Below, one piece after another: positions 3 to 56,321 of a DNA stretch of 64,000 nucleotides (position 1 is its first letter; each line of letters opens with the position of its first letter). This DNA is from an uncultured Thermotogae bacterium (GTDB taxonomy: Bacteria > Bipolaricaulota > Bipolaricaulia > RBG-16-55-9 > DRXL01): positions 48,258-112,257 of the forward strand of contig CAYYOG010000004.1 of assembly GCA_964473325.1 (NCBI GenBank), read 5' to 3'. Below the pieces are notes generated by a model. It was not told the origin of the DNA, made no database searches, and worked only from the letters and a program-made list of their open reading frames with translations. Both the position numbers and the translations under genes were made by a program.

Positions 3-791
3 ATTGACTTTTCAGATATTTCGCTCGTCGGCGCGACGTATGGGCCAGGGCTGGTCGGCCCGCTCCTCGTCGGGCTGTCGTATGCCAAAGCCGTCGCGTA
101 TGCGCTGAAAAAGCCGTTCGTCGGCGTCAATCACTTAGAGGGGCACATCTTCGCCCACTATATAGAGAACCCTGACGCGCCTCCGCCGTTTCTCGCGCTC
201 ATTGTCTCCGGAGGGCACACGCTCTTGGCAGAGGTGCGCACCTACGGCCAGTACGAAGTCCTGGGCGAGACGCGAGATGACGCTGCTGGAGAAGCCTTCG
301 ACAAAGTGGGAAAGCTCTTGGGCTTGGGCTATCCCGCCGGAGCAGCGTTAGATACATTAGCTCGCCAGGGCAACCCCAAAGCGATTGCACTCCCAAGGCC
401 GATGCTCGATTCAGATTCTTTAGAGTTCAGTTTTGCTGGGCTGAAGACGGCGATTGTCTATTATCTGCGCGATCACCCCAACGCTGACAGAGCTGACGTC
501 GCGGCGTCGTTTCAAGAATCTGTCGTAGACGTCTTGGTCGAGAAGGCGCTGCGGGCCGCGCAGCAGCTCCATATAAAAAAGATTGTCGTTGTGGGCGGAG
601 TGGCCGCGAATTCACGGCTGCGTGAGCGCTTACTCGCTCAGAAAAATTTTGAAGTCTTCTTCCCAAAGATGGAGCTGTGCACCGACAACGCTGCCATGAT
701 CGCGGCCTGCGCGGCGTTTCGGTATAGAGTTCTTGGACAAAGTGATTCTCTCGATTTAGCCCCGCAGCCGGGCTTAGCTCTCGTTTCCTAA
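3..791 (+). CDS. tsaD: tRNA N6-threonylcarbamoyladenosine synthase TsaD (5' truncated by window edge)
   Basis: Frame is open from the window start: IDFSDISLVGATYGPGLVGPLLVG...VNHLEGH...GETRDDAAGEAFDK...FSFAGLKTA...GGVAAN...CTDNAAMIA, all TsaD/Kae1 motifs. Confidence 0.95.
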   Translation: MDFSDISLVGATYGPGLVGPLLVGLSYAKAVAYALKKPFVGVNHLEGHIFAHYIENPDAPPPFLALIVSGGHTLLAEVRTYGQYEVLGETRDDAAGEAFDKVGKLLGLGYPAGAALDTLARQGNPKAIALPRPMLDSDSLEFSFAGLKTAIVYYLRDHPNADRADVAASFQESVVDVLVEKALRAAQQLHIKKIVVVGGVAANSRLRERLLAQKNFEVFFPKMELCTDNAAMIAACAAFRYRVLGQSDSLDLAPQPGLALVS

Positions 792-2024
792 AAAATTGCC
801 GCGCACTTCTAAGACGTTTAATTCTGTCACTTCTGCAGCTGTGCCCAGAAGCTCGCTTATGCTGGGGCGCGTCCGCCCACCGTCCCCAGAGACTAACTCT
901 TTGATATACAAGCCCCCCTCGCAGTGAACCGTGATCAGAGCTTCTGGTGGACTGAGCAGTTCCCCAGAGATCTCCAGCACGCGCCGCGTGCGCACCAAAT
1001 CTGCCCGACGATGAGCGACTCGCGCGGGCGTGCGCTGCTCAATCGTCGCGCCGCGCAAGCGCTCGAGCACTTCTTGCAGTTGCTCAAGTTTGATTGGTTC
1101 CGCAAAGCGCACCTTGGCTTCATAGACTTTTTCCGCTTCAGTGTTCTTTAGTTTCTCGACCACCGAGCCCTTGACAAATTGCAGCTCGCTCACCTCGACC
1201 TTCCCTGCAGCGTTTTCATTGATCTCTTTCTGAAGCTTCTCTAGATCAAGCGTGCGCACTTTTGGTTCTTTAATCTCAATGACAAAGGGGCGGCCCGTGC
1301 CCAGCATCAGCGCGTCTATGTCTTCTCTACCCGCACCGTGAAAAGCTGTGCCCGTGCCTTGTGTCTCGCGCAAGAGCGGCGGGCTGATCAGCTCTTCCAC
1401 GCTCTCTTGATAAGTCTTTCCTGTAAAATTACACTCTGGGCAACCGCGCCCACGACATCTCCGACAGGGCCACCTCGTCTGAGGGATCGTCCGCACGAAT
1501 TTCTTATAGCGCCCGTAGATGAAGAGCGGGTTGATCCGAAGGTGTAATTCAGATTTTTCAAGGTCCATCAGCAGAACGATCTCGGGGTCGAGAAAATCCA
1601 CGACAACGGGGTGACCACGTTCTGCAAGCAGCATCCCGAAGAGCCGCCCGACCTCTCTATTGAATTCTTGCTTGAACGGCTCGCCCTGCAGCTCATACTT
1701 CTCTGTGAGGGCCAGCTCAGCGCTCTCTATGTGCGACGGCACCCGCGTGCCCATCAGGTACGTGCGAAATTCTATGCCTTCAACGGCTGTGAGAGCACGC
1801 GTGGCCCACCGCTGAACTTGAGAGAAGATCCCCTTGCAAACGCGACAGCTCTGCTCATTCTCTACAAAGACGTGCCCCTCCATATTGAGTACAGTACGCA
1901 GGGAGCGCCCTCTCTGGGCGTTGCGCAGCCCCCTCCCCACGTGCGAGAACGCCCGCCCAAGACAATGGTCACAGAGATCACCTTCAGCGAGTATCTGACG
2001 CGCTTTCTCTAATAGAGCGGACAT
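774..2024 (-). CDS. pus10: tRNA pseudouridine(54/55) synthase Pus10, archaeal type
   Basis: N-terminal LCDHCLGR; THUMP-like region (EPFKQEFNREVG); YGRYKKFVRTIPQTRW; Zn motif CRRCRGRGCPEC; catalytic FHGAGREDID..LGTGRPFVIE; C-terminal QRTPARVAHRRAD and CEGGLYIKELVSGDGGRT. Confidence 0.93.
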   Translation of the reverse strand: MSALLEKARQILAEGDLCDHCLGRAFSHVGRGLRNAQRGRSLRTVLNMEGHVFVENEQSCRVCKGIFSQVQRWATRALTAVEGIEFRTYLMGTRVPSHIESAELALTEKYELQGEPFKQEFNREVGRLFGMLLAERGHPVVVDFLDPEIVLLMDLEKSELHLRINPLFIYGRYKKFVRTIPQTRWPCRRCRGRGCPECNFTGKTYQESVEELISPPLLRETQGTGTAFHGAGREDIDALMLGTGRPFVIEIKEPKVRTLDLEKLQKEINENAAGKVEVSELQFVKGSVVEKLKNTEAEKVYEAKVRFAEPIKLEQLQEVLERLRGATIEQRTPARVAHRRADLVRTRRVLEISGELLSPPEALITVHCEGGLYIKELVSGDGGRTRPSISELLGTAAEVTELNVLEVRGNFLGNES

Positions 2025-2101
2025 GCGACCTTGGTCTCTCCCTTCGTCTGGGGTAGATTATATCCCACCGGAGGTCCGCCTGACAGCGAGGTCTGGGCAC
2101 T

Positions 2102-3217
2102 GTGAAAAATAATATTCGAGGCACACAGCGAGGAAAACGTCGACGTTTTGCTCTATGTGGGCTTGCCCTTGTCGGGTTTACGATGTTACTCTTTGTTCTC
2201 ACCCAGCCAGAGCGTCCTGCGCAGCCGGTCTCCAAGGCTGCGCTCGTTCCCATCAGCAAGAAAGTCCCGACGATCTCAAATCGTGATTCATCTTTGGGAG
2301 AGCTTCCTCAAGTCCGTGCGGTCTATCTGCCGGCGGCCGTCGCTGCTAACCCCAAAAAACTCCAAGAAATCATAGAGAACTCCCAGCGTCTTGGGTTCAA
2401 TGCCCTTGTGATAGACATCAAAGACAATCACGGCACGGTCGCCTATGACACAAAAGTCCCGTTAGCGCAGAAGATCGGTGCGCGTCTCAATCTCTTACAG
2501 CTTGATGAGCTTCTGCCCCGACTGAAAAAGCTCGGCTTCTATGTAATCGCCCGACAGGTGCTCTTCTATGATCCCAAGCTAGCTGGGCATCTGAACCCAT
2601 TGCCGAGTGAGAGAGAGCCTCAGCGGTGGGTCTCCCCAGCCGACGCGCGCGTCCAAGAGTACAATCTCGCGATTGCTGCAGAAGTCGCGTCGCTGGGCTT
2701 TGATGAGCTGCAGTTTGATTATATTCGCTGGCCCGACGGGGGAGCGTATAAGCCCGTCTATGCCGAACGCTACGATGCTATCGAGAGATTTCTGCAGCGC
2801 GTCTCGGAGAGATTACACGGAAAGATTCGGCTTTCGGCGGACGTCTTCGGTCGGACGCTCTGGGGGTGGAATCTCAAAAAGATAGACCCCATCGGGCAGC
2901 ACCTGGAGACGTTCAGTAGATTTTTCGACGTGCTCTCGCCGATGGTCTACCCGTCGCATTACGAGACGGAAGCGCTCCGTTCCGATCCCTACGGGACGGT
3001 GAAAAAAGCCTTAGAGAGCGGGCTGAAGCGCAATCTCAAATTGAGACCCTTCTTGCAAGCCTTTGAGATGCGCATTCCCGCTCATATGAGCTATGCGCGC
3101 TACATTCGCGAGCAGATCCGCGCAGTGCGCGAGCTGGGATTAGAGAGCTATCTTTTCTGGAACCCCAGAGGAGACTATACAGCGCTCTGGAGGGCACTGG
3201 AGGCAGGATCTCCTTAG
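2102..3217 (+). CDS. Membrane-anchored putative glycoside hydrolase (DUF4015-like TIM barrel)
   Basis: N-terminal TM segment; VRAVYL, NALVIDIKD, GFDELQFDYIRWP and SPMVYPSHY motifs; start codon uncertain. Confidence 0.75.
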   Translation: MKNNIRGTQRGKRRRFALCGLALVGFTMLLFVLTQPERPAQPVSKAALVPISKKVPTISNRDSSLGELPQVRAVYLPAAVAANPKKLQEIIENSQRLGFNALVIDIKDNHGTVAYDTKVPLAQKIGARLNLLQLDELLPRLKKLGFYVIARQVLFYDPKLAGHLNPLPSEREPQRWVSPADARVQEYNLAIAAEVASLGFDELQFDYIRWPDGGAYKPVYAERYDAIERFLQRVSERLHGKIRLSADVFGRTLWGWNLKKIDPIGQHLETFSRFFDVLSPMVYPSHYETEALRSDPYGTVKKALESGLKRNLKLRPFLQAFEMRIPAHMSYARYIREQIRAVRELGLESYLFWNPRGDYTALWRALEAGSP

Positions 3218-7843: not shown

Positions 7844-10474
7844 TTACCTCCGTCGTTGTTCGTTCTTCCACCACAGGGTGTCGGCGAACGCTAGTACGCC
7901 CCAGTTGGGTTTAAAATTCTCGTTATTGCCCAAATCGGCCTTGCTTGCATAGAGAAACTGCTGATTGACCAGGTAGATATAGGGAAGGTTCTCCGAGACG
8001 AGCCGCTGAAACTCTTTATAGATACGCTTCACTTCGTCGTCATCAAAGGTCGTGGCTCCCAGATCGAAGAGCTCGTCCACGCGCTTCTCCCACGCCGGGG
8101 GGCTCTCTTTCGAAGAGTAGCGCCAGAAGTGTAAGCGCCCGTTGGTCTTCCAGACATTGGAGCCGTTGTTGGGTTCTGGGCCGCCGGTCAGCCCTAGTAC
8201 TATCGCTTCGAAAGTGCTCGTCGTCAGTTGATTCACTAAAGCGTTGAAGTCCATCGGGCGAGCGTTAGCTTTCACGCCAATCTTGGCAAAGTCATTGACC
8301 AAGAGCGAGACGATCTTCTCCCGGATCTGGTTGCCCGAATTGGTCGCCAAAGTAAACTCTAATTCGCGGTCCTTCTCTGGGCCAAGGCTGGCCAAGTCCG
8401 TAGGGCGGTCTTCGGGGTTTGCGAAGTTCTTTAAGAACCCATCAGTGATGTTGCGCACGCCGTCGCCATCTGTATCTTTGAGGCCGATCTCGTCGAGCAG
8501 TTGGGCTGCTCGCTGTAAGCTGTACTCGTACTTGGCGAACGACTCGCTCTTGTCATAGTAGGGTGAGGGGATACTGACGGGACTCCATTGAGGAATCGCT
8601 AGCCCGTTATAGATATTTTCGATGATCGACTCTTTGTCGATAGCATGAGCCATAGCGCGACGGAACTGCACATGGCGGAAGACAGCTTGTAAGGCTCTAT
8701 AGAACGGCTTGGTGGGGTCGACCTTCTCTACATCTTGGTTGAATGCCAGATACGTCTCACCGAAGGTCGGGCCGTCGCGCAAGAGCTTCCAATGGTTGAC
8801 GCTGTTAAAGCAGATCGTGACGTCGCTCGACCTCTGAACACAGTCTTTTTCAATATCTTTGACGCCTTCCATTAACAGCGGCCAGTCCTGAGGCCGCGGC
8901 CCAAAGACATCAGTCTCGCCAGACTTAAACTTTAAGAACGCTGTGTTGAGATCGGGCACGACAAGAAAGACAAACTGATCGAAGTACGGCAACTGCACCC
9001 CGTTGGGATCGATCTTCCAATAGTACGGGTTGCGCTCCAAGATGACTTGCTGGTCGACGTCGTAGCGTACGAAGCGATACGGCCCTAACCCCACAAACTC
9101 GCTGGCAGGCGTGCCCAGGCTCCACGTATTATTAAAGAGCTCAGGCGAGACGCCCGCCCACTTGCCTGCCTCGGCCTGTTCGAGCACTTTCTGGGCATCG
9201 TCTGTAGCGCGCTGCAAGGCTTCGATCAGCTCGGCTTGCTCCTCCCTGACAGCGGCCTGCAAGGCTTGTAATGTCTCTTTGATGCTCGTGACACGTGCGC
9301 GCACTTGGTCGAGTTGTTGAGCGTTCACGGCCTCGCCCAGCGCCCCAAGCTTCTTATCAAGATCTGAAAGCTTCTCTGCAGAGACGCCTTGCAGATCTTT
9401 TCTGTTGTCTTCGATGACTTTCTTCAAGCCCTCAAAGTACCCCCGTGCGCCGGGGTTAAGCTTGGCGACTTTGTCGGCCAACTTGAACTTGGGCAAGATA
9501 GCAAACGTCAACGACCAGAAGATGGGTCGGAAGGGTTTCGGCATAATGACTTTGACGGTCTCGTCGTCAATTTTGACGAACTCTAATGGCTTGCCCTCAA
9601 CGTAGAGCAAATCGCGCCCGGCAGAGTTCACTTCAGGGTTGAGATGCAGATCGTTGTACGTGAAGAGCACGTCGTCGGCGCTGAAGCAGCACGTGCCGTC
9701 GGACCAGCGCACGTCACGGCGCAGGTGCAGCGTGAGCTCTTTTTTATTCTCAGAGAGCTCCCAAGCGACGGCGAGGCCCGGCGTGGGCGTGTAGTCCTCC
9801 CAGCGCGTCTCGATCAGCCCGGCGTGCATCAGACCTGTTATGTCTGTAGAGCTCGTCTCTTGGGCGACGACGGGATTGAGCGTCTTTGGCCCGCTGATGG
9901 TGCTGATAACAATCTTCCCTCCGGGGACACCGGGCTCTCTTAGTCCCTCAGGAGCGCTGACGACCTTGGCATCAGCGGGGATGACGCCGCCTCGCAAGGG
10001 CTGCGGCTCAATCACAGTGATCTCTATTTTTTGTCCAGCCAGCTCGACGGTCTTCGGGCCAAACGTGGCAAAGCCACGGATCTGGAAGTGTACGTGCTTT
10101 GTCTCTCCGGGCAAAAGCTTCGCCGTCTGGGTCCCAAGGCGCTCCCCATCGAGCGTGAGTGCGATCTCTTCCGTGGCTTCACTTGTCCCTGGATTGTGCA
10201 AATAGACATTGAATGCCACGGTCCCGTCTCTAACAACGAGGCGGTTGCTGGGGAAGACTTCTATTCGTGTGACGGAGAGCGCACCGATCTGCCCTAGAGT
10301 TTCTTTTGGCTCTTCAGCTCTCTCTTGAGGAGGCTGTGCTGGCTCCTTGGGCTCCTCTACTCTTGGTAGCAGTTGTTGCTCCGGGGGCTTCACTCCCGGC
10401 GGTACCCCTTGGCACCCGCTGAGCCAGACCCCAAGCCCGACTATCGCGGCGAATACTATCAGACTCTTGTTCAT
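7844..10474 (-). CDS. oppA: Peptide ABC substrate-binding lipoprotein (family 5) with CARDB-like Ig domain and helical insertion
   Basis: SD AAGGAG; lipobox LSGC; GPKTLNPVV, LRRDVRWSDG, VGLGPYRF and LERNPYYW motifs. Confidence 0.88.
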   Translation of the reverse strand: MNKSLIVFAAIVGLGVWLSGCQGVPPGVKPPEQQLLPRVEEPKEPAQPPQERAEEPKETLGQIGALSVTRIEVFPSNRLVVRDGTVAFNVYLHNPGTSEATEEIALTLDGERLGTQTAKLLPGETKHVHFQIRGFATFGPKTVELAGQKIEITVIEPQPLRGGVIPADAKVVSAPEGLREPGVPGGKIVISTISGPKTLNPVVAQETSSTDITGLMHAGLIETRWEDYTPTPGLAVAWELSENKKELTLHLRRDVRWSDGTCCFSADDVLFTYNDLHLNPEVNSAGRDLLYVEGKPLEFVKIDDETVKVIMPKPFRPIFWSLTFAILPKFKLADKVAKLNPGARGYFEGLKKVIEDNRKDLQGVSAEKLSDLDKKLGALGEAVNAQQLDQVRARVTSIKETLQALQAAVREEQAELIEALQRATDDAQKVLEQAEAGKWAGVSPELFNNTWSLGTPASEFVGLGPYRFVRYDVDQQVILERNPYYWKIDPNGVQLPYFDQFVFLVVPDLNTAFLKFKSGETDVFGPRPQDWPLLMEGVKDIEKDCVQRSSDVTICFNSVNHWKLLRDGPTFGETYLAFNQDVEKVDPTKPFYRALQAVFRHVQFRRAMAHAIDKESIIENIYNGLAIPQWSPVSIPSPYYDKSESFAKYEYSLQRAAQLLDEIGLKDTDGDGVRNITDGFLKNFANPEDRPTDLASLGPEKDRELEFTLATNSGNQIREKIVSLLVNDFAKIGVKANARPMDFNALVNQLTTSTFEAIVLGLTGGPEPNNGSNVWKTNGRLHFWRYSSKESPPAWEKRVDELFDLGATTFDDDEVKRIYKEFQRLVSENLPYIYLVNQQFLYASKADLGNNENFKPNWGVLAFADTLWWKNEQRRR

Positions 10475-10510
10475 AATCTCGTCTCCTTTGGTTCCCATTA
10501 TAGCTGACGG

Positions 10511-10705
10511 TCAGCGGCTACGTCCATACTGGGCTACCCCAATCAGCCCCATTACTAAGCCGACCAACGATGCCCCGTATGAGAAGAAGCTCAAAGCGAA
10601 GCTAGGCTGTATAACCCTTATGACCATTAAGAAGGGCAGGATGGCCCCAGCGAGGAGAAGCACGGTAGCGAGAATGAGAAGCCGCACGGGAGCTGAGACT
10701 CTCAT
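10511..10705 (-). CDS. Small two-TM membrane protein in the opp operon
   Basis: ATG overlaps the oppF stop (TGATG); 64 aa, almost entirely hydrophobic (MRVSAPVRLLILATV...). Confidence 0.65.
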   Translation of the reverse strand: MRVSAPVRLLILATVLLLAGAILPFLMVIRVIQPSFALSFFSYGASLVGLVMGLIGVAQYGRSR

Positions 10706-11667
10706 CAACGATAGAGCCAGCATTCTACCAGGTGCCCCGCAGAGGGCTCGAACTCTGGGGGTATCTCTTTATCGCACAGTCCGGCCATGAATGCTGGGCA
10801 GCGCGGGTGGAACCGGCAGCCCGATGGGGGATTCACCAAACTCGGAGGCTCCCCCGGCGGAACTTTCTTGAATGTTTGGGCGTTCGCGGGGTCAGGATCG
10901 GGAATAGCTGCTAAGAGCGCTTGGGTATACGGATGTTTCGGGTCTTTGAGGAGTTTCTGCACCGGGGCTTTCTCGATGAGCTTGCCCGCGTACATCACAA
11001 AGATCCGTTCGGCAAAGTAGCGCACCGTCGAGAGATCGTGTGTAATATAGATTACAGTCAGATCGTGCGAGCGCTGCAAGCCGCGCAACAGCTCCAAGAT
11101 CTCGACCCTCACCGACGCATCGAGCATCGAGACCGGCTCATCAGCGACTATAAATTTGGGCTTTAAGATCATAGCCCGCGCGATAACTAAGCGTTGCTGC
11201 TGCCCCCCAGAGAGCTGATGTGGGAATTTATAGAGAAAATCTTCGACAGGGGTGAGCTTCACTTCTTCTAAAACTTCTCGGATGCGTTGCTCTCTGTCAC
11301 CACGAAAGTTATTGATCACTAACGGCTCTGTTAAGATGCGATGGACGTCCATAAATGGGGGCAGGGCCCCATAGGGGTCTTGCTGGATGTACCCGATCTG
11401 GGCACGATACCATCGCAGATCTCCATCGAGAGGGCGGCCCTCAAAGAGCACCTGGCCCTGAGTAGGGCGATAGAGCCCTAGGATAGTCCGAGCGAGCGTC
11501 GATTTCCCGCAACCGCTCTCGCCCACAACAGCGATCGCTTCGCCGTGGCGCAACTCAAAGCTGACGCCGTCCACGGCGCGGACAAAACCCGCCCGCCCAA
11601 ATGCCCCACGACGCAACTCAAAGTGCGTATGCAGATCCTTCACGGATAAGAGCATCTTGTCTTGCAT
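10705..11667 (-). CDS. oppF: Oligopeptide ABC ATPase OppF/DppF
   Basis: Walker A GESGCGKS, LSGGQQQR, ADEP, C-terminal CRFHPRC Fe-S motif. Confidence 0.92.
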   Translation of the reverse strand: MQDKMLLSVKDLHTHFELRRGAFGRAGFVRAVDGVSFELRHGEAIAVVGESGCGKSTLARTILGLYRPTQGQVLFEGRPLDGDLRWYRAQIGYIQQDPYGALPPFMDVHRILTEPLVINNFRGDREQRIREVLEEVKLTPVEDFLYKFPHQLSGGQQQRLVIARAMILKPKFIVADEPVSMLDASVRVEILELLRGLQRSHDLTVIYITHDLSTVRYFAERIFVMYAGKLIEKAPVQKLLKDPKHPYTQALLAAIPDPDPANAQTFKKVPPGEPPSLVNPPSGCRFHPRCPAFMAGLCDKEIPPEFEPSAGHLVECWLYR

Positions 11668-15188: not shown

Positions 15189-17831
15189 TCACTGCACCGT
15201 GACGAACGTGGTCTCCTCCGTCGAGGGGATGCTCACAAGCTTCGAGACGACGATCACCTGGAGGCGGTTGCCTCCGGCGGCCAGTTGGGCCGTCTGCTCT
15301 GGGCTGAGCGCGACGCGCCACAACCCGTCATGGACCACCTCAGCTTCGCCAACGAGCGTGAGCTGGCCCGTCGCATCGAAGACCAAGAACTTCACAAAGT
15401 CTATATCTTTCACAGCATAGGGCTCGCCCTTGAACGTCACTTGGACGTCAAACGTCGCGGTGTCGCCGATCTTGACTTCTATCGGTCCAGAGATATCGAC
15501 ATCAGCAATGCGGGGCTCGCTGAAGCGCAGCCATTTCTCTGGGCCATCGGGGAAGTCCGCAAATCTCTTGATGACGATATTCTTCTCGACGGGGTGGACC
15601 GAATCAAGGAAGAATGGCCCGTTGCCAATCCAGAAGTGCTTGTGTGCGTTGTACCATTCGCCGAGAAGTCTATAGCGCTCTTTCGCTTCTTGGGGGGTGA
15701 TGAACTCTTTCAGGGTGTTTTCGTAAGGGATAAAGCCTTGCTCGAATGCTTGAGCGCGGTATTTCTCTAAGATCGCCAATGCTGGACCGGCGATGTAGCT
15801 GGCCCGCTCGACTTTGAGCTTATCGGACTTCGCTGCGGAGAACGCCAGCTCTTTGTTCTGTTCGGCTAAGATCCCGACAGCTAAGGATTGCAGGGGGACA
15901 GTCGTGAAGAGATAGCCTGATCGTGACGAGGCGATCCACTCGGCATCAGGGTAGAAGAGATCGCTATAGACCTCGACGATGAGTGGGTCTTTTTGCACGA
16001 TCTTCAGCCCGCGGAAGTGACGCATGAACGACTCAAACGCCGGTACGGCAGCTTCGTCGTAGATGGGGCTTTCGGGCTTGGCTCGCTCAAACGTCAAGAT
16101 AAACCCGATCACGCAGTCGGCCAAGGAGATCTGTGAGCCGTCGTGCCACTTCATCCGGAAGAGGTTCTCTGGATAGTAGATAACGGCCTTGGTCTTGGCT
16201 GTGACTCCTTCAGGGTACTTTTCGCGTACCGTGATAAATCGTTGATTGACGGGGTCCCAGTCAGCCCACGCCTCTTCGGGAACTTTGATCTTGGGGAGGA
16301 ACTCTAACTTCAGCCACTCAAGGGTCCGTGTGACAGGGATGCCCTCTTGGACATAGACGTCTACGAACTTGACGCGCTGCGGCCAGTACAGCCCGGTGAA
16401 GGGGTCAGGCAGAGTATCTGCATCTACAGTAGCACGGATGATCATCGTGTCGAAGATCCAGTTTGTACCCGCGACAGGGTTCCACGGCTCGGTCATCAAG
16501 CTGGGCACACCCCAGACGAGTCTTTCTACTTGTTGGCGCCCTTCTACACGCAGTGTGAATGGCCACAGCGCTGAGCCGGACATCCCCCCGGCCAAGTCCG
16601 ACGCTAATCTCACTTCAGCGCGGCGTGCCCAGACGTCAATCGTATCGGCCAACCAGACCCGCACCGAATCTTTCATCGCCAGGCGCAGGGCTTTCTCCAT
16701 CAGTGCTTGGCGCTCTTCGATGGTCTGGTAATCACGGCGTCCAAGGCGATTGGAGACCTCATCAAATTCTGGCTCAGGGGTGTATGCCTGCCAGAGCGGG
16801 TCAGGGCGCCCTCGGGAGGTGTAATAGAAATCGAAGTTGCCCGCCAGATCGCGATTCACAACGGTCGAGACCCAGCCTGCTGTGTAGAGGTGCCATCTGC
16901 CGTCAGCGGGATCGCTGCCGATCCAGATGGGCGAGGCCTCAGCGGCTGTCTTGTACTGACGATCAACTGTAAAGCCTAAATCTTCTAAGAGATTCGCGAT
17001 GTAGTCGCCCACCTCGCGGCGCTTATCTTCAGTACGGATGATGAAGATCAGCTTGACCGGCTGGTTATTATAGTGCCATTTGTTGTTTCGGAGCTCTGCG
17101 CCGAGCTTCTGCATCTCTTCGGTGATGACGGCGCGGGCCTTGTCAGGGTTTGGAGCATAGTACGCTTCGAGCGCTTTGGCAACGTGAGCAAGGCGGGCAT
17201 AGTCAGGGAAGACCGTGTTGATGGGCAAGTATCTGGGCACAGCCAGGCCGCCATAGATCTCTTGGGCGATGATGTTTCTATCGACGAGCCAGTTGAGTGC
17301 CTCACGGATTGCCGGCACGGAGAAGGGATTGAGCACCCCGTTCTTGAACGTCGGCCCCACGGGGTTGAGCGTGAGCTCCACAGACCCACCATAGGACGTC
17401 TCGTACCCCAAGACCGGTGAAACCCTCACTTTGCGGGCCAATTCTGGGTCGCGGATCCCAAATGCGTAGAGATCTATCTTGCCCGCGATGAGCATATCGA
17501 GCGCTTTCGCTTGATCGGGCTCCTGCACGAAGACGACTCCATTGATAAGCCCCACAGGAGGCTGGACTTGCGGCTGTTCTGGGGGCAACGTCGGCTGCTC
17601 TCCCGGCGTGACGGCTGCTGTGGGAGGAGCTGGCGGAGGTGTGGGTTCAGTCGCAGGTGGCGGTGTTGTTGGAGGTTGCGTCTCTGTCGGCGGTGGTGTC
17701 GTCGGTTGCTGCGTGACTTCTGGAGGTCGTGTCGGCTGTGGCCGTTGCCACGGCTGGGCAATCAGCAGAATCGCTATCCCGATGACAACTAAGACCCCGA
17801 TAGTTAACCAGATCCGGCCCTTCTCAGTCAT
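15189..17831 (-). CDS. oppA: Peptide ABC substrate-binding protein (system 2) with Pro/Thr-rich linker and C-terminal Ig-like domain
   Basis: N-terminal TM, PTTPPP repeats, ELTLNP, AIREALNWLVDR, KWHDGSQI, IGNGPFFLDS. Confidence 0.85.
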   Translation of the reverse strand: MTEKGRIWLTIGVLVVIGIAILLIAQPWQRPQPTRPPEVTQQPTTPPPTETQPPTTPPPATEPTPPPAPPTAAVTPGEQPTLPPEQPQVQPPVGLINGVVFVQEPDQAKALDMLIAGKIDLYAFGIRDPELARKVRVSPVLGYETSYGGSVELTLNPVGPTFKNGVLNPFSVPAIREALNWLVDRNIIAQEIYGGLAVPRYLPINTVFPDYARLAHVAKALEAYYAPNPDKARAVITEEMQKLGAELRNNKWHYNNQPVKLIFIIRTEDKRREVGDYIANLLEDLGFTVDRQYKTAAEASPIWIGSDPADGRWHLYTAGWVSTVVNRDLAGNFDFYYTSRGRPDPLWQAYTPEPEFDEVSNRLGRRDYQTIEERQALMEKALRLAMKDSVRVWLADTIDVWARRAEVRLASDLAGGMSGSALWPFTLRVEGRQQVERLVWGVPSLMTEPWNPVAGTNWIFDTMIIRATVDADTLPDPFTGLYWPQRVKFVDVYVQEGIPVTRTLEWLKLEFLPKIKVPEEAWADWDPVNQRFITVREKYPEGVTAKTKAVIYYPENLFRMKWHDGSQISLADCVIGFILTFERAKPESPIYDEAAVPAFESFMRHFRGLKIVQKDPLIVEVYSDLFYPDAEWIASSRSGYLFTTVPLQSLAVGILAEQNKELAFSAAKSDKLKVERASYIAGPALAILEKYRAQAFEQGFIPYENTLKEFITPQEAKERYRLLGEWYNAHKHFWIGNGPFFLDSVHPVEKNIVIKRFADFPDGPEKWLRFSEPRIADVDISGPIEVKIGDTATFDVQVTFKGEPYAVKDIDFVKFLVFDATGQLTLVGEAEVVHDGLWRVALSPEQTAQLAAGGNRLQVIVVSKLVSIPSTEETTFVTVQ

Positions 17832-17894: not shown

Positions 17895-18083
17895 TCAAAT
17901 CGCTTTCTGGACCTTGCCGGCCTTCAAGCAGCGCGTGCAGACTGTAATTTTCATGGTTCGGCCGTTGACGATGGCGCGCACGGTCTGCAAATTGGGCTTG
18001 AACGTTCGATTGTTGCGATTCCCGGCAAAGCTCACTTGATTGCCAAACTTTGTCGTCTTGCCACAGATAGCACATGCGGGCAT
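17895..18083 (-). CDS. rpmB: 50S ribosomal protein L28 (Zn-ribbon type)
   Basis: MPACAICGK..FGNQVSFAGNRNNRTFKPNLQ..VCTRCLKAGKV. Confidence 0.95.
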   Translation of the reverse strand: MPACAICGKTTKFGNQVSFAGNRNNRTFKPNLQTVRAIVNGRTMKITVCTRCLKAGKVQKAI

Positions 18084-18246
18084 AGCATTTGTCACCCCTA
18101 TAGAGTATTGAGATTGTATTATCTCAAAAAACGGAGCTGTTCGCAAGGAGCTCTCGATTTGACTCCCCCCCCCTTTACTATATATATCAACCAAGGAAGC
18201 CAATAAAGGGAACACCGGTTCATTCGCTTGGAGGAGGTTGGTCGTG

Positions 18247-19722
18247 ATGAGAGGCCTATCGGTAGGGGTTAGCTTAATCTTTAGTGTTTTCTTGATTGCT
18301 CTTCCCATCGGTGCAGCGCCCATCTCTGGGGAAGCCAATATCGGCCTTGTCCTGCGCTCCGCGACGTGCGGCATCGATGCCGATGGCGATACGTTCGTGG
18401 ACGAAGATCCCCCTAATACTATTGACGACGACGGGGACACGCTCATCGACGAAGACGACTGCTCGAAGATCGATCTGAGCGTCTTGAAGTTCGAGTCAGA
18501 TCTGGTAGTGAATCTCTCTATCAGTGGGCTGCAGATCACCAGCACGTCGGTGTTCACGTTCAAGGGCTTAGAGTACCAAGCGTTCAGCTTCGCTATGACT
18601 GTCGGGGCGCTCTCGTTTAGTGACGTTATCGTCTTTGCGCCTAGCGTCACGGAGATCGCTTTAGTGCGCAACGCGAGCAGCCTCAGTGTGCGCTATTGTA
18701 TTTTAGACTCTGCGCCGGGGAGCGTCAGCCCGCCGTTTCGGAGCTGTCCGCTCTTTGATAGTCGTTTATATTGGCTCTTAGAGGGCGATGGCTTCTATCA
18801 TCCGACGGTCGCGAATCTGATCCTCGCGCAGATCTTCGACGAAGGAGGAATGCTCCTGCCTAAGACGCTGACGCTTCGGAAGAAAGTCGCTGATCTTGCG
18901 TTTAATATTGCTGGCATGACAGTAAGCACCCGCGCGCTCTTGGCCAATCTGGGGAGCGTTTCAGCGCCGGAGTTTCGAGTAGGGCTGGTGCTAGGGCTGG
19001 AGGGCCAGACGGTGAGCGGGATTCTCATCCGCAGCGAAACGTGGATCGGCGCACGACAAGGTTTAGAGTGCTTCGCCGAGTGCAAGCCTCTAGAGCGTCT
19101 CTATCTGGGGATCGTCACCGACGAGTTTAGCTTCCAAGAGGAGAAGCTCTTCGTGCGCAACGTAAAGTTTCTTGGCATGACGTTTCACTTTCTGCTTGAA
19201 GTCGGCGCTGTCTGCGCCGAAGATTTCCTCTGCTATGCTGAGGTGAATACGATCATCCCAGTTCAGCCGCTCGGTCTAGAATTCAATAATACTCTGCGAT
19301 TTGGCCCGGGGATACGCGAGCACTTTGATGCTCTGAGCACAACGTTGCGCTTCGGAGACGCATCGGTCTTGGCGCTCTGGTACTTCTACCCACGCACCGG
19401 CTCATGGAAAGCACAAATAGCCCGTATCATCAGCTCATTTGATCCACCAGGTCTGACGGTCTCAAGCGATGTGCAGCTGTGCACGGGAACGGCGTATCTC
19501 TTCTGCTCCAGTGGGGTCACCAAGCACACGGTTTCGCTGACGGCAACGATTGGCGATCTCTCGCTCGACACAAAACTGATCTTCATCGGGTTGATTAAGA
19601 ACTTCTATCAGCTCTGGCTCGATGCAGCCTGGAAGCTAGGCGGGGTCGAGCTGTCTAGCTCTATCGTGCTCTCAGTGAAATATCTCAATGCTTTCGCAAT
19701 GGGGATCACAGTGAGGTTCTAA
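18247..19722 (+). CDS. Exported beta-rich protein, probable outer-membrane barrel, with acidic metal-binding loop
   Basis: GGAGG SD; signal peptide; DADGDTFVDEDPPNTIDDDGDTLIDEDD; alternating hydrophobic strands; terminal GITVRF. Confidence 0.6.
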   Translation: MRGLSVGVSLIFSVFLIALPIGAAPISGEANIGLVLRSATCGIDADGDTFVDEDPPNTIDDDGDTLIDEDDCSKIDLSVLKFESDLVVNLSISGLQITSTSVFTFKGLEYQAFSFAMTVGALSFSDVIVFAPSVTEIALVRNASSLSVRYCILDSAPGSVSPPFRSCPLFDSRLYWLLEGDGFYHPTVANLILAQIFDEGGMLLPKTLTLRKKVADLAFNIAGMTVSTRALLANLGSVSAPEFRVGLVLGLEGQTVSGILIRSETWIGARQGLECFAECKPLERLYLGIVTDEFSFQEEKLFVRNVKFLGMTFHFLLEVGAVCAEDFLCYAEVNTIIPVQPLGLEFNNTLRFGPGIREHFDALSTTLRFGDASVLALWYFYPRTGSWKAQIARIISSFDPPGLTVSSDVQLCTGTAYLFCSSGVTKHTVSLTATIGDLSLDTKLIFIGLIKNFYQLWLDAAWKLGGVELSSSIVLSVKYLNAFAMGITVRF

Positions 19723-19724
19723 CT

Positions 19725-22700
19725 ATGCGCCCTATAAAACTCACCTTCGCAGTCGTTCTCGTAGCTCTGGGAATCGGCCTATGGCTCAGTGGGGTTCCGG
19801 CATACGCGCAGTTCACGATCACCAGGACATCATCTCCTATCTTTTACATTGACAGCGGCGTCAGCCCACCGCTCAGGGCAATGTATGTTTCTTACAAAAT
19901 CTGCAACACCAGTGGGACCAACTATCCAGACATCTGGGTGAATATTAGCGGTTTTACTGGTGGGATCGTCTCATTAGCTCCCTATGAGGACGGTGTGGTG
20001 CATCTTGGCACGATCAACGCGGGGCAATGTAAGGCAGCGTTCTTCTACCTGCAAGCGAGCGGGCCAACAACTACACCGCAGTCGCACACGGTGCGCGTCT
20101 TTGCTGGACCTCCGTCGGGCACACCGCTGGCCAGCGCGACGTTCTCGTTTACGAGCGTCGAAGAGACCATCAAGGCGAGCGCTAACAAAGTCCATACTGT
20201 GGTCATCAGCACCAATGATCCCATACTCGGAACGCTCATTGTTATCACCGTGACAGGCGAATCCGGCGTAATAGGCGCAGCACGAGTGATGTCTTATACG
20301 CCTGCATCGTACACGACATGGCGTGCGGATTGCTTCATGCTCTACAGGACGACGATCACCCTTACTGGGGGCAACACCGGCACGTTCACCGATCAATTGC
20401 TGATACCACCCGACTCGCTTCCCTCTCCGGCAAACACGAATTACACGGCAATGTACACATTTCGTGTAGCGGATGTGTGTACTCTCCCGACAACAGTGAG
20501 CCCTGTGGCCTATATCAGCAGCGGGATGGAAGTGAAGCACACAGACACGGGCAATTTCGGCGCACTGCCCCCTGTCAACCCTGTGAGTAATAACCTCGTC
20601 ATCCTTAGCAAGACAGCAACACCAGATACTTTGCCGGGAACGGGCGGTGTAGTAACTTATACGATAACATTAGCCAACGGCGCTGCCGATGACGTTACCC
20701 TCGACGATGTCAGAGACACACTGCCCACGACTCCAGCTATACCAACGTATGTAAGCGGGTCATCCCAGTGGGACGGCTCACCAGTCCCTGATCCTGTTGT
20801 ATCGGGCAATATATTAACTTGGTATGGGTTCTTAACGATCCCTGCTGGTTCAACTGCGGCGTTAAGGTATCAGATAGCATTCCCCGCGATCAACTGCGTC
20901 TCGTACCACAACAGCGCCGTTGGTCATATCGGATCAGCGCAGATAGATACGACTCTTGATACAACAGATAATGCCCCCGCTCAAGAGACCGTGAACGTGG
21001 GAACCAATTGTCAGGATCTAGCGATCACCAAGACCCACACGGGCAATTTCGTCGTCGGCCAGCAAGGGGTGTACACAATCACTGTGACGAACGTTGGTGA
21101 AGCAAGTACAACAGGAACGATCACAGTGACTGATACGTTGCCTACAGGACTAAGCTACGTTTCTGCCACGGGAACGGGTTGGAGCTGCTCTGCTATGGGA
21201 CAGATAGTCACGTGCACGAACCCTGGGCCCTTAGCTCCCGGCGACAGCACGAGTATTACTATCACCGTAAACGTGCTCCCTGGGGCCTACCCCAGCGTGG
21301 ACAACGTGGCAACAGTTTCAACGCCTGGCGATACCAATACTTCAAACGATCAAACAACTGATACAACACTGGTCGATGCTCCAGATCTCGCTATTCAAAA
21401 GACCCACACAGGGGACTTCATCGTAGGGCAAGATGGGACGTACACCATCACCGTGACGAACGTCGGCACTATCCCAACCACAGGAACGATCACTGTCACA
21501 GACACGCTGCCCAATGGATTGAGTTTTGTCTCCGGGGTAGGCACAGGCTGGAGCTGCTCTGCCGTTGGACAAACAGTCACCTGCACCAATCCTGGCCCGC
21601 TGGCTCCTAGCGCAAGTAGTACTCTCACTTTAACAGTCAGCGTCGGCCCTGGAGCAGTGCCCAGCGTCACAAACAGCGTCACGGTCTCTACTCCCAACGA
21701 CCCAAACCCCAATAACAATACTGCTGATGACCCCACTGTGGTGTTATCAGCACCAGATCTAACAATTGTTAAGAGTCATAGCGGCGATTTCATCGTCGGG
21801 ACTACTGGGACGTACACGATTACCGTGACCAATATCGGCTTTGGGAGCACGACGGGGACGATCACCGTGACGGATACGCTGCCCACAGGGCTGAGCTTCG
21901 TCTCCGGGACGGGAACGAATTGGACGTGCTTTGCCGTTGGGCAGACCGTGACGTGCACGAACCCTGGCCCGCTCAACCCCAGCGACAGCAGCAGCATTAC
22001 GCTCACGGTGAGTGTGGACCTAGACGCTTATCCATCAGTCATAAATACAGCAAGCGTCTCTACACCAGGCGACATTGATCCTGATAACAATAGCGACGAC
22101 GATCCCACAGATGTCCTTGCGCCTGATCTGCAGATCACAAAGAGCCACGTGGGGAACTTCGTGGTCGGGCAACACGGCGTCTATACAATCGCGGTCACCA
22201 ATACTGGGATGGCTCCTACGGTAGGGACGATCACTGTTACAGATAATTTGCCCCTCGGACTGACGTTTGTCTCAGGGGTAGGTCCGGGCTGGACGTGCTT
22301 TGCTGACGTCCAAACCGTGACGTGCACGAACCCCGGCCCGCTCAACCCCGGCGATAGCAGCAGCATTACGCTCACCGTCAGTGTCGGCCCAGAAGCCGTT
22401 CCTAGCGTCACTAACTCCGCGACGGTGACAAACCCTTACGATCCTGATCCGTCCAATAACACCGATGACGACCCAACCGATGTCGAGCCGGTTGCTGATC
22501 TGCACCTCATCAAGACCGTCGACAATCCCAACCCCAACCTGGGCGATACAATCACCTTTACAGTGACTGTCACCAACGACGGTCCCAACACCGCGACGGG
22601 CGTCGTAGTGACCGATCAATTGCCTTCAGGACTGACGTTCGTCTCGTACAGCGCCAGCCAAGGGACCTATAACAACGTCACCGGAATCTGGACGGTCGGA

Positions 22701-42890: not shown

Positions 42891-42963
42891 GGGTCGTTAG
42901 CTCAACTGGTAGAGCATCCGGCTCTTAACCGGAGGGTTGTAGGTTCGAGTCCTACACGACCCA
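42891..42963 (+). tRNA. tRNA-Lys (CTT)
   Basis: Acceptor GGGTCGT/ACGACCC; anticodon arm TCCGG-CTCTTAA-CCGGA; GGTTCGAG T-loop; CCA not encoded. Confidence 0.95.
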
Positions 42964-42970
42964 CATCTTT

Positions 42971-43043
42971 GTCCCCATCGACTAGCGGTCTAGGTCACGG
43001 CCCTTTCAAGGCCGAAACGGGGGTTCGAATCCCCCTGGGGACG
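42971..43043 (+). tRNA. tRNA-Glu (TTC)
   Basis: Acceptor GTCCCCA/TGGGGAC; CGGCC-CTTTCAA-GGCCG; GGTTCGAA T-loop; CCA not encoded. Confidence 0.95.
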
Positions 43044-44187
43044 TATCTAGTCTATCGCTCACCAGCTCGATCAAGTCTGTGACTTGAATCTGGCTGCCTA
43101 CGACTTTTGTGGCCTCGTGGAGGTTCACCATGCAGAATTGGCAAGCCGTCACAACAAGATCAGCGCCGGTGTCGATGGCCTGCTTCAAGCGAGTCTCGGC
43201 TAAGCGTGCTTGTTCGTCTTTGATGGGCTCAACCCACATCCTGCCGCCACCGCCCCCGCAACAGAGCGCGCGTTCTCTACAGTCTTTCATCTCGATCAAC
43301 GTGACGCCGGGCATCGCGTTGATGATCTGCCTAGGGGCGTCGTAGATCTTATTGTGCCTGCCCAAAAAGCAAGGATCATGATACGTAACTTTAATCGGTG
43401 GCCCCTCAGCGAAGCTCAATCGGCGAGCTTGGAGAAGCTCTGCAAGGAACTGAACATAGTGCTGCACTTCCCAAGGTCCTGAAGGGTACTCATTTTTGAA
43501 AGCATTATAGCAGTGAGGTGACCCAGCCACGATCTTCTTGATCTTATACTTGTGCCAGAGCGCAGTATTAGTGTCAACGAGCATCTGAAAGAGCCCTTCT
43601 TCACCCAAACGGCGAATGCAACTGCCGCAACAGTTCTCTTCTTCTCCTAGGATGCCAAAGGGAATCCCAGAGTGTATCAAGACACGGACCATAGATTGAG
43701 CGATCTTCTGGGCTCTGGGATCATACGAGGCAGCACAACCGACATCATAGAGTATTTCCGTGTTTTCCGTGGGACGCCCGATATTGAGTGCAGCAGCCCA
43801 TTTAGCGCGTTCGCTCCGTGGCTTGCCCCAAGGGTTTCCGTACCGATCTGTCCCTTTAAAAGCAGCAAAGAGTGCCTTCGTGACGTGTTGAGGTACGCTG
43901 CCATTCTCGACGGCCCGGCTCCGCAGTGAAGCCAAAACTTCTGGAGGCTTGACTGCCATGGGACAGCGTGCCACGCAGGCGTTACAACTCGAGCAAACCC
44001 AGAGCTGCTCAGAACTGAGAACTTCTTCTGGTGCCAGTTGTGCTTTGAGCATTAACTTCCTCGGGTTGAAGCCCACGGTAGTGCTAAAGGGGCAGATGCT
44101 GCCGCAGGCCCCACACTGAAAACAGATATTCGCTTGCCGCAGCCTCGACTCTATGACTTTCTCGATATCAGTTATCTCTGCTGCCAT
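43006..44187 (-). CDS. HdrD/GlpC-like Fe-S oxidoreductase (2x4Fe-4S + 2 CCG domains)
   Basis: CFQCGACGSICP, CSSCNACVARCP, ENCCG, YHDPCFLGR, LCCGGGGG. Confidence 0.88.
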   Translation of the reverse strand: MAAEITDIEKVIESRLRQANICFQCGACGSICPFSTTVGFNPRKLMLKAQLAPEEVLSSEQLWVCSSCNACVARCPMAVKPPEVLASLRSRAVENGSVPQHVTKALFAAFKGTDRYGNPWGKPRSERAKWAAALNIGRPTENTEILYDVGCAASYDPRAQKIAQSMVRVLIHSGIPFGILGEEENCCGSCIRRLGEEGLFQMLVDTNTALWHKYKIKKIVAGSPHCYNAFKNEYPSGPWEVQHYVQFLAELLQARRLSFAEGPPIKVTYHDPCFLGRHNKIYDAPRQIINAMPGVTLIEMKDCRERALCCGGGGGRMWVEPIKDEQARLAETRLKQAIDTGADLVVTACQFCMVNLHEATKVVGSQIQVTDLIELVSDRLDTSPGGFEPPFRP

Positions 44188-44203
44188 ACTCTATCTAGCT
44201 CCT

Positions 44204-51530: not shown

Positions 51531-51539
51531 GAGAATCTC

Positions 51540-52664: not shown

Positions 52665-52670
52665 TCTCTC

Positions 52671-52926
52671 TCACCCAACTTCGACGCTGTAAATGGCAAA
52701 CTCTGGACAGATCAACATACAGGTCTTGCAGTCTACGCAGGCTTCTTCTTGGCCGGCCTTCACTCGAGGAAGATGGTACCCTTTGCTGTTGATCTCCTCA
52801 GATTCTTCTAAGACTTTCTTAGGGCAGAATGTCCAACAAAAGCCGCATCCCTTACATCGTTCGGGGATGATATGGACGCGCCCTCGAGGGGTTCTCAACT
52901 TCTCTCCGAGGAGTTTTTGTGCACTC
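52671..52926 (-). CDS. korD: 2-oxoacid:ferredoxin oxidoreductase delta subunit (2x4Fe-4S)
   Basis: [28 protein letters not shown]; start assumed near MSAQKL (approximate). Confidence 0.85.
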
Positions 52927-53445: not shown

Positions 53446-53458
53446 TATTAAGACCTCC

Positions 53459-53530
53459 GCGGGCGTAGCTCAGAGGTAGAGCACTGGCCTTCCAAGCCAG
53501 GTGTCGCGGGTTCGATTCCCGTCGCCCGCT
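53459..53530 (+). tRNA. tRNA-Gly (TCC)
   Basis: GCGGGCG/CGCCCGC; CTGGC-CTTCCAA-GCCAG; GGTTCGAT. Confidence 0.95.
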
Positions 53531-53533
53531 CCC

Positions 53534-53603
53534 CCAGGCTTCGCCTGGACCGTACATCTTCGCCAGCCACAGGCTGGCGAAGACGAGGCCCACGCGCAGC
53601 GTG
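53534..53603 (+). repeat. Repeat family B, copy filling the Gly-Arg spacer (right TIR absent)
   Basis: CCAGGCTTCGCCTGGACCGTAC..CTTCGCCAGCC/GGCTGGCGAAG..GGCCCACGCGCAGCGTG matches the reverse complement of 42754-42837. Confidence 0.88.
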
Positions 53604-53678
53604 CGCCCGTAGCTCAATGGGAAGAGCAGGGCCCTTCTAAGGCTCAGGTTGCAGGTTCGAGCCCTGCCGGGCGCGCCA
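53603..53678 (+). tRNA. tRNA-Arg (TCT)
   Basis: GCGCCCG/CGGGCGC; anticodon loop CTTCTAA; GGTTCGAG; CCA encoded. Confidence 0.93.
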
Positions 53679-53679
53679 G

Positions 53680-53749
53680 CAGGCTTCACCTGCACCGTAC
53701 GCCTTCGCCCGCCAGAGGCGGGCGAAGATGAAGCCCACACGCAGTGTGT
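53680..53749 (+). repeat. Repeat family B, copy filling the Arg-His spacer (right TIR absent)
   Basis: CAGGCTTCACCTGCACCGTACGCCTTCGCCCGCC/GGCGGGCGAAGATGAAGCCCACACGCAGTGTG. Confidence 0.88.
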
Positions 53750-53827
53750 GAGGGACGTAGCTCAGCCTGGCAGAGCATCGGCCTGTGGAGCCGACCGTCG
53801 CGGGTTCAAATCCCGTCGTCCCTCCCA
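53750..53827 (+). tRNA. tRNA-His (GTG)
   Basis: Encoded G-1 opposite C73; AGGGACG/CGTCCCT; TCGGC-CTGTGGA-GCCGA; CCA encoded. Confidence 0.95.
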
Positions 53828-56246: not shown

Positions 56247-56318
56247 GCCGGCGTAGCTCAGCGGTAGAGCAACGGTTTCGTAAACCGTGGGTCGGAGGTT
56301 CGATTCCTCTCGCCGGCT
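56247..56318 (+). tRNA. tRNA-Thr (CGT)
   Basis: GCCGGCG/CGCCGGC; ACGGT-TTCGTAA-ACCGT; GGTTCGAT. Confidence 0.95.
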
Positions 56319-56321
56319 CCC

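Follow-up and report, generated by a model that had tools for sequence, protein, structure and literature searches.

The DNA analyzed here, referred to as the window, is a stretch of 64,000 nucleotides from contig CAYYOG010000004.1 (positions 48,258 to 112,257) of GenBank assembly GCA_964473325.1, and its host was found to belong to Candidatus Bipolaricaulota (Acetothermia). Near its beginning, the window carries pus10, a gene encoding a tRNA pseudouridine(54/55) synthase, the enzyme that converts the uridines U54 and U55 of the tRNA T-loop into pseudouridines (Psi54 and Psi55). An earlier note on this DNA had described it as a full-length, intact, archaeal-type Pus10 in a bacterial chromosome. 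The gene and its domains were located as follows.

774..2024, minus strand: pus10 coding sequence, tRNA pseudouridine(54/55) synthase of 416 residues (open reading frame, TIGR01213, PF21238, PF22023, AlphaFold2 model)
1836..1973, minus strand: N-terminal zinc-ribbon region, residues 18-63, with four conserved Cys residues (C18, C21, C60 and C63) forming a putative zinc site
1563..1808, minus strand: THUMP-like RNA-binding domain, residues 73-154 (Pfam Pus10_THUMP_arc, positions 1-78/78, E 1.3e-20)
804..1523, minus strand: pseudouridine synthase catalytic domain, residues 168-407 (Pfam Pus10_C, positions 1-231/232, E 3.9e-71)

The open reading frame (ORF) is intact and runs on the minus strand from an ATG at 2024-2022 to a stop codon at 776-774. 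Its product was matched from end to end by the NCBIfam equivalog TIGR01213 (524.6 bits at a cut-off of 200, model positions 1-401/402), and PF21238 and PF22023 were also found well above their cut-offs (239.7 bits against 27 and 73.8 bits against 28, respectively). Human PUS10 (2V9K) was the sole solved relative detected in the PDB by sequence (E 4.7e-33), and the catalytic domain aligns with residues 287-520 of that protein. An AlphaFold2 model, based on 51 homologues, had a mean predicted local distance difference test score (pLDDT) of 94.6 and a predicted template modeling score (pTM) of 0.88. Its top Foldseek match in the PDB was again 2V9K, which covered both domains (E 2.7e-31, template modeling score 0.76), and the next matches, TruA, Cbf5 and TruB, covered the catalytic core only. 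The profile matches and the predicted fold confirm the earlier claim of a complete Pus10, and the motifs named at that time are all present, namely C18xxC21, C60xxC63, C187RRCRGRGC195PEC198 (corresponding to CxxCxxxGCxxC) and G232REDID237.

The four N-terminal Cys residues are the counterparts of C31, C34, C106 and C109 of the characterized Methanocaldococcus jannaschii enzyme (MjPus10). They are invariant in the 51 aligned homologues and in all 18 bacterial sequences, and are present in 118-120 of 120 archaeal representatives. The arrangement by which the Pus10 family is recognized, an N-terminal four-Cys site, here with predicted zinc binding, followed by a THUMP-like domain, was thus found in the window protein. 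Since it agrees with the family in each feature that can be examined, the protein is classed on its sequence as a true family member and not as a mere look-alike.

The surroundings of pus10 are bacterial, as had been claimed. TsaD is of the bacterial type (TIGR03723, 320 bits at a cut-off of 296), and the archaeal Kae1 model remained below its cut-off. MurF (TIGR01143, 383 bits), bacterial PheS (TIGR00468, 339 bits) and ribosomal protein L28 are also encoded in the window, together with two Opp-type ABC operons, a giant DUF11 protein, genes for an electron transfer flavoprotein, for Hdr-like proteins and for a 2-oxoacid:ferredoxin oxidoreductase, and six tRNAs. The features next to pus10 are listed below.

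3..791, plus strand: 3' part of bacterial tsaD, convergent with pus10 (PF00814; TIGR03723)
2102..3217, plus strand: DUF4015 gene, divergent neighbor of pus10 (PF13200, E 3.2e-68)
2086..2057, minus strand: putative promoter CTGTCA-18 nt-TATAAT (consensus scan, 10/12 matches, pattern match only)
2045..2036, minus strand: Shine-Dalgarno-like GAAGGGAGAG upstream of the ATG at 2024 (direct reading, pattern match only)

tsaD and pus10 share 18 nucleotides at their 3' ends (774-791), and the order of convergent tsaD, pus10 and divergent DUF4015 is kept in 10 independently assembled metagenome-assembled genomes (MAGs) from different studies (loci L001-L009 and L014). DUF4015 is the most conserved partner; it adjoins pus10 in 15 bacterial loci, in which Pus10 identity falls as low as 54%. 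More divergent copies adjoin RuvX (L024) or sigma-70, PriA, LigA (the NAD-ligase) and RlmN (L025), and thus have different bacterial surroundings, the contigs being up to 488 kb long. The composition of pus10 matches that of its neighbors: its GC content is 0.558 and its GC content at third codon positions 0.624, compared with 0.557+-0.014 and 0.640+-0.040 for the other genes of the window. Nothing beyond the unexpected taxonomy of the Pus10 family speaks for an assembly or binning artefact, in which an archaeal fragment would have been joined to a bacterial contig, whereas the recurrence of the same junctions in 10 assemblies, the composition of the gene and the different bacterial settings of its orthologues all argue against it. 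The probability of such an artefact is negligible, and chimerism at the tsaD/pus10 junction, which had been named in advance as grounds for rejecting the finding, is excluded. In comparisons with ten orthologues, the ratio of nonsynonymous to synonymous substitution rates (dN/dS) was 0.08-0.14. The -10 box and the Shine-Dalgarno-like pattern upstream of the gene are bacterial in style. The gene is therefore a long-resident, vertically inherited Bipolaricaulota gene under purifying selection.

Among the matches listed, the closest homologues, with identities from 100% to about 50%, are encoded by MAGs named Candidatus Bipolaricaulota, Bipolaricaulia or Acetothermia and by a few named Fraserbacteria, and homologues bearing such names extend to about 44% identity. 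A genome scan with the window Pus10 returned 17 bacterial loci at 44-91% identity and three archaeal ones, and dozens of Bipolaricaulota MAG proteins are annotated automatically as Pus10 by NCBI and IMG. Judging from these matches, pus10 is a phylum-wide gene and not a peculiarity of one odd lineage. Short matches in Tissierella and unnamed bacteria (L021-L023) were rejected; they cover 18-35 residues around the Cys motif and are not Pus10. The Pus10 proteins of three loci labelled Candidatus Fraserbacteria (L003, L008 and L009) are 82-86% identical to that of the window and share the tsaD/pus10/DUF4015 synteny with Bipolaricaulota-labelled loci (L001, L004, L005 and L014). At NCBI, the two labels are used inconsistently, as these MAGs clearly represent a single lineage, and GTDB presumably places Fraserbacteria inside Bipolaricaulota.

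Three reviews, from 2021 (PMC7912444), 2023 (PMC9957541) and 2025 (PMC12710931), state that Pus10 is absent from Bacteria, which rely on TruB and TrmA, and is confined to some eukaryotes and to Archaea. The searchable literature yielded no paper that connects Bipolaricaulota or Acetothermia with Pus10 or with pseudouridine in the sense meant here. The bacterial Pus10 is consequently known to databases through automatic annotation and unremarked in the literature. Its novelty is smaller than the earlier note had assumed, given a phylum-wide gene that already bears its name in dozens of MAGs, but a bacterial phylum with a conserved and selected Pus10 contradicts what the reviews still state.

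Active site and predicted specificity

The functional residues of MjPus10 were defined by mutagenesis (Joardar et al. 2013, PMC3753934). D275 was required for all activity, the Y339A and L440A variants had no detectable Psi54 activity left, and R273, D277, I412 and K413 contributed to activity. The determinants of Psi54 formation were the forefinger-loop segments ffl1 (C227-R231) and ffl2 (C238-V249) and the thumb residues H376 and R377; deletion of the forefinger segments abolished Psi54 activity and did not abolish Psi55 activity. In agreement with this, the Pyrococcus furiosus enzyme, which has neither ffl1 nor ffl2 and carries Asn-Ser in place of the thumb His-Arg, forms Psi55 only (PMC3753934). 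The window residues were mapped onto MjPus10 by motif order and consistent numbering offsets (40, then 38), not by direct sequence alignment, and the following elements were located.

1314..1331, minus strand: catalytic motif G232-R-E-D235-I-D237, with catalytic Asp235; maps to MjPus10 R273/D275/D277
1431..1466, minus strand: forefinger-loop Cys cluster C187-x2-C190-x3-G-C195-x2-C198, counterpart of MjPus10 ffl1/ffl2
1005..1013, minus strand: thumb-loop H338-R339-R340 ('hook' residues), of which H338/R339 correspond to MjPus10 H376/R377

The remaining active-site residues Y339, I412, K413 and L440 of MjPus10 have their counterparts in Y301, I374 (Ile or Val), K375 and L402. All of these positions, that is, R233, D235, D237, Y301, I/V374, K375, L402, H338/R339 and the forefinger CxxCR...CxxC cluster, are conserved in 18/18 bacterial copies and are invariant or nearly so in the 51 aligned homologues. 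For the seven active-site residues (R233, D235, D237, Y301, I374, K375 and L402), the latter also holds across the 18 bacterial and 120 archaeal representatives, R233 and D235 being invariant and D237 nearly so. The forefinger Cys cluster is invariant in all bacterial copies; the segment W185-E207 that contains it has 23 residues, as in 98 of the 120 archaeal representatives, while a short loop of 6-12 residues was found in 7 of them. Since neither the forefinger loop, which has its full length, nor the His-Arg pair of the thumb has been lost, the window Pus10 probably makes Psi54 as well, and we predict an MjPus10-like enzyme with dual Psi54/Psi55 specificity.

MjPus10 and the window enzyme share the order of the N-terminal four-Cys zinc site, THUMP domain and catalytic domain, as well as R-x-D-x-D, the Tyr, the Ile/Val-Lys pair, the Leu, the full forefinger Cys cluster and the thumb His-Arg, and the same mechanism and product are predicted for both. 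They differ in the bacterial host and, judging from published residue numbers, in a forefinger Cys spacing that is apparently 3 residues shorter in the window protein. The Pus10 proteins of Methanosarcinales and other Halobacteriota (403-434 residues) have all of these motifs and are 47-50% identical to the window protein over their full length, but are encoded in archaeal genomes, and a sister relationship with them has no bootstrap support. The P. furiosus enzyme has the same catalytic residues and belongs to the same family but is set apart by its forefinger and thumb loops, as described above. Human PUS10 shares the overall fold but is 24% identical; its accessory domain is larger, its forefinger is without the Cys-rich insertion of 9 residues, and TRUB1 operates beside it in the cell. 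Bacterial TruB modifies the same T-loop nucleotide and shares its catalytic core fold with the window enzyme (Foldseek matches to 1K8W and 1ZE1 at about 1e-7), but it is a member of a different family that has a PUA domain, possesses neither THUMP domain nor zinc site, and forms Psi55 only.

The window encodes the following tRNAs, which are predicted substrates of the enzyme.

42891..43044, plus strand: tRNA-Lys(CTT) and tRNA-Glu(TTC), with G53-U54-U55-C56-G57-A58 (ARAGORN, Rfam)
53459..53827, plus strand: tRNA-Gly(TCC), tRNA-Arg(TCT) and tRNA-His(GTG) (ARAGORN, Rfam)
56247..56320, plus strand: tRNA-Thr(CGT) (ARAGORN, Rfam)

All six have G53-U54-U55-C56-R57-A58, so the U54 and U55 reported in the earlier note are indeed there. 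U54 and U55 are found in the T-loop of almost all tRNAs, however, and their presence therefore says nothing either way about Pus10 chemistry, for which it had been offered as evidence; the canonical T-loop is necessary for the proposed role and not diagnostic of it. The 3' CCA is encoded in tRNA-Arg and tRNA-His (53603-53827), and is not encoded in the Lys, Glu, Gly and Thr tRNAs.

A rival reading is that the enzyme is not a T-loop Psi54/55 synthase but has taken on a different RNA (rRNA, tmRNA or mRNA, for example) or functions chiefly in RNA binding or as an RNA chaperone. Precedents are a catalysis-independent role of human PUS10 in miRNA processing, described in reviews, and the chaperone activity of TruB itself, for which a review cites the literature. 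In contrast, every catalytic and T-loop-related residue is invariant, the six tRNAs have a canonical T-loop, and an end-to-end match to an archaeal equivalog model at 2.6 times its cut-off argues against neofunctionalization. Such a recruitment is regarded as improbable. That a T-loop synthase of this type can operate on bacterial tRNA is known from MjPus10, which outcompetes TrmA and which, when placed in E. coli lacking truB and trmA, formed Psi54 as well as Psi55 (PMC3753934, PMC7912444), so the enzyme needs nothing archaeal-specific on bacterial tRNA.

TruB and the rbfA loci

The RbfA protein of L016 and subsequently a Bipolaricaulia RbfA were used as queries to reach the loci at which truB is usually found. 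Eight distinct Bipolaricaulota rbfA loci were obtained (L016/26, L032, L030/31, L027-29, L033, L034, L035 and L038/39), and all eight have the order infB-DUF503-rbfA, after which come genes of unrelated function: a convergent DUF501 gene, a PLD-family gene, or genes for formate-tetrahydrofolate ligase, CCA-adding enzyme, DUF87, HPF and rpoC. No TruB_N domain (PF01509) was detected within +-10 kb of rbfA in these eight lineages. Two control bacteria from outside the phylum, obtained in the same RbfA search, have the order rimP-nusA-ylxR-infB-rbfA-nrnA-truB-ribF, continued by rpsO-pnp in L036. An E. coli TruB sequence, which matched PDB 1R3F at 1e-150 when validated, detected both controls in tblastn searches at 1e-40 to 1e-44 and gave no TruB in the approximately 540 kb of Bipolaricaulota DNA searched. 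Similarly, tblastn with E. coli TrmA found no TrmA in the Bipolaricaulota DNA searched, and no genome-wide search was made; PF04013 (TrmY, COG1901) was absent from the gene neighborhoods examined, and no search was aimed at TrmY.

A published gene table points in the same direction. According to Takami et al. 2012 (PMC3267732, Table S1, on near-universal bacterial genes), the composite genome of Ca. Acetothermum autotrophicum has TruB = 0, and NusA, IF-2, RbfA, RibF, S15 and PNPase are present. A 2025 survey (PMC12641178) reports unusually few bacterial ribosome-biogenesis factors in Bipolaricaulota, which fits a lineage that sheds bacterial RNA-maturation genes but is not evidence on truB. 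No per-genome truB or Pus10 annotation was found in the supplements of Hao 2018, the isolate preprint, or the Biga Peninsula and Lost City studies (per-sample tables).

Several features of these loci were recorded alongside. In L027-L029, L033-L035 and L038-L039, the infB operon has no rimP-nusA-ylxR upstream and no nrnA-truB-ribF-rpsO-pnp downstream. The formate-tetrahydrofolate ligase gene directly follows rbfA in L033, L034, L038 and L039, with overlapping stop and start codons, and is followed in turn by the CCA-adding enzyme, DUF87, hibernation factor and rpoC genes. L035 has a 215-residue ORF between rbfA and the ligase gene (10368-11015, plus strand), which was considered as a degenerate TruB and rejected, since neither Pfam (E<=1) nor tblastn gave it any match. 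Assembly GCA_040961015.1 contributes two different syntenic rbfA loci on different contigs, L033 and L038, and probably represents two related genomes that were co-assembled or a bin of mixed content. In one subclade (L016/L026, 8533-16331, and L032, 2621-10387), pus10 itself lies 2.5-3.4 kb upstream of infB-DUF503-rbfA, the distance being 2.5 kb in L016, the 488-kb Acetothermia contig. The gene order there is RuvX (opposite strand), pus10, OsmC (opposite strand), M32 peptidase, (S58 peptidase) and infB. The position of pus10 close to the usual place of truB may be a coincidence.

A rival account of these loci is that a TruB encoded elsewhere in the genome makes Psi55 and that Pus10 has been retained to form Psi54, in every tRNA or in a subset, where it would replace or compete with the formation of 5-methyluridine at position 54 (m5U54) by TrmA/TrmFO. 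This division of labor would account for the conserved Psi54 determinants and, according to reviews, has a parallel in human cells, in which TRUB1 serves for Psi55 and PUS10 for Psi54. Moreover, nusA, ribF, rpsO and pnp have also left the infB operon and yet exist elsewhere in Ca. A. autotrophicum, and truB could therefore do the same. However, TruB is 0 in that genome while all of its usual neighbors were found, the approximately 540 kb of Bipolaricaulota DNA gave none, and phylum-wide retention under strong purifying selection fits an essential-type function, for instance that of a sole Psi55 synthase, at least equally well. Coexistence with TruB is thus an unlikely, although by no means negligible, alternative. 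We rate a genome-wide absence of truB from Bipolaricaulota as somewhat more probable than its presence, and Pus10 likely replaces TruB in this phylum, as far as can be judged from gene content.

Origin and proposed role

A search of all representatives of clusters formed at 50% identity returned 588 Pus10 clusters at E<=1e-30, of which the best representative was just 48% identical to the window Pus10. Among the matches listed, the nearest named archaeal relatives are Halobacteriota, namely Halobacteria and Methanosarcinales, at the 47-50% identity given above, whereas the proteins of Bathyarchaeota, Thermoplasmata and Thermosphaera share 31-43%. The grouping with archaeal Pus10 that the earlier note had proposed to examine was thereby obtained. 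In neighbor-joining trees with a star-like backbone, the bacterial sequences are found among archaeal Pus10, next to Methanosarcinales.

An alternative to transfer is that Pus10 is ancestral in this deep-branching phylum and was lost from all other Bacteria. The star-like backbone of the Pus10 tree leaves some room for this, and the bootstrapped subset recovered no combined clade of bacterial and Halobacteriota sequences (0.5%). However, the bacterial copies lie among and not outside the archaeal representatives, their best non-bacterial matches are to Methanosarcinales and Halobacteria and not to the other archaeal groups, and the same window encodes a second Methanosarcina-type protein, HdrA2. 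Ancestral retention is hence very improbable.

On balance, we lean towards the interpretation that the window encodes a functional Pus10, anciently acquired from Archaea, that acts as the T-loop pseudouridine synthase of the phylum instead of TruB and probably forms Psi54 too. The alternatives rank, in decreasing order of likelihood, as coexistence with TruB, another target, ancestral retention and artefact. The stronger version, in which the whole phylum lost TruB, whose gene is treated as a universal marker of bacteria, archaeal Pus10 makes both Psi55 and Psi54, and Bipolaricaulota are the first bacteria with a Psi-Psi T-loop (possibly with m1Psi54) in place of T-Psi, is put forward tentatively. 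The idea of the earlier note that Pus10 replaces TruB or provides Psi54 has gained indirect support, from the missing truB after rbfA in eight lineages, the zero entry in Table S1 and the conserved Psi54 determinants.

The proposed mechanism involves a stand-alone, zinc-binding THUMP enzyme that would isomerize U55, and probably U54, through the catalytic Asp235. The THUMP and zinc domains would dock on the acceptor/T-arm, and the forefinger and thumb loops would hold the T-stem-loop, such that U55, or U54 in a second binding mode, could flip into the pocket formed by Y301, I374/K375 and L402 and be isomerized through D235. At the level of the lineage, this would represent a non-orthologous displacement in which Pus10 took the place of TruB as the Bipolaricaulota T-loop pseudouridine synthase, and the outcome would be an archaeal-style Psi54-Psi55 T-loop. 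The swap would have taken place at the root of this deep-branching phylum, whose members live in the anoxic subsurface, as methanogenic Halobacteriota do, and apparently have other genes in common with them, such as that of HdrA2.

Several observations weigh against the favored interpretation. The composite genome of Ca. A. autotrophicum is incomplete, and its entire ribosomal-protein cluster and TruA are also given as 0 (PMC3267732). The Bipolaricaulota infB operon is fragmented, and nusA, ribF, rpsO and pnp are likewise not at that locus. The predicted Psi54 specificity is read from the mapping of one sequence onto the mutagenesis of another enzyme. Support in the deep phylogeny is low: in neighbor-joining bootstraps, the main bacterial clade was recovered at 22% and a clade of all bacterial copies at 0.5%. 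Furthermore, two sequences with Acetothermia or Bipolaricaulota labels (P0146 and P0154) and the unlabelled P0160 fall outside the main clade; they are 40-43% identical to the window Pus10 and group with 57% bootstrap, a placement that could reflect fast evolution or a second transfer. Low bootstrap values and outlying Bipolaricaulota copies mean that a single ancient transfer is not demonstrated, and the single bacterial clade sister to Methanosarcinales suggested by the trees was therefore set aside. An archaeal origin of the bacterial Pus10 is well supported; a single transfer or a specific donor is not claimed.

If truB is really gone, Bipolaricaulota would show cleanly, in nature, how one of the most conserved tRNA modification enzymes can undergo non-orthologous displacement, and the first Psi54 in Bacteria might follow. 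GTDB-type phylogenomic and completeness pipelines count TIGR01213 among the archaeal markers and TIGR00431 (TruB) among the bacterial ones. With this marker use, the biology of Bipolaricaulota itself would make their genomes look somewhat incomplete and contaminated. The first cultured Bipolaricaulota isolate has been reported (bioRxiv 10.1101/2025.11.21.689855), which makes the T-loop prediction directly testable.

Other genes of the window

The HdrA2 protein mentioned above is encoded at 47750-50140 (minus strand). It has 796 residues with a fused MvhD-like end and passes the NCBIfam model for the Methanosarcina-type protein (1134.9 bits at a cut-off of 1100). The regions around it (43006-47738 and 50137-56150) encode two HdrBC-like CCG proteins, EtfAB, a 2-oxoacid:ferredoxin oxidoreductase, a GlcD-like FAD oxidase and a LUD protein. 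As a second methanogen-flavored gene of the window, it hints at wider gene flow from Halobacteriota. An archaeal-type putrescine route is encoded by an agmatinase gene (41272-42201, plus strand) followed by a gene for a pyruvoyl-dependent arginine decarboxylase (about 42216-42752, plus strand; NF009064, 228 bits). The start listed for the decarboxylase ORF, 42099, lies within the agmatinase gene, and the true start is probably further downstream.

The 258-residue ORF at 17895-18671 (minus strand) is a listing artefact of which only residues 200-253 match L28; the real rpmB gene comprises about 60 codons at its 3' end. It is overlapped by an ORF of 494 residues (18238-19722, plus strand) with no Pfam match. 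The gene at 19725-24932 (plus strand) encodes a 1735-residue protein with eight DUF11 repeats and SdrD-B-like and CHU_C-like C-terminal parts, probably a surface protein. Finally, the two Opp-type ABC operons include family-5 solute-binding proteins of 884 and 880 residues (7844-10498 and 15189-17831, both minus strand), which are unusually long for a family whose members usually have roughly 500-550 residues.

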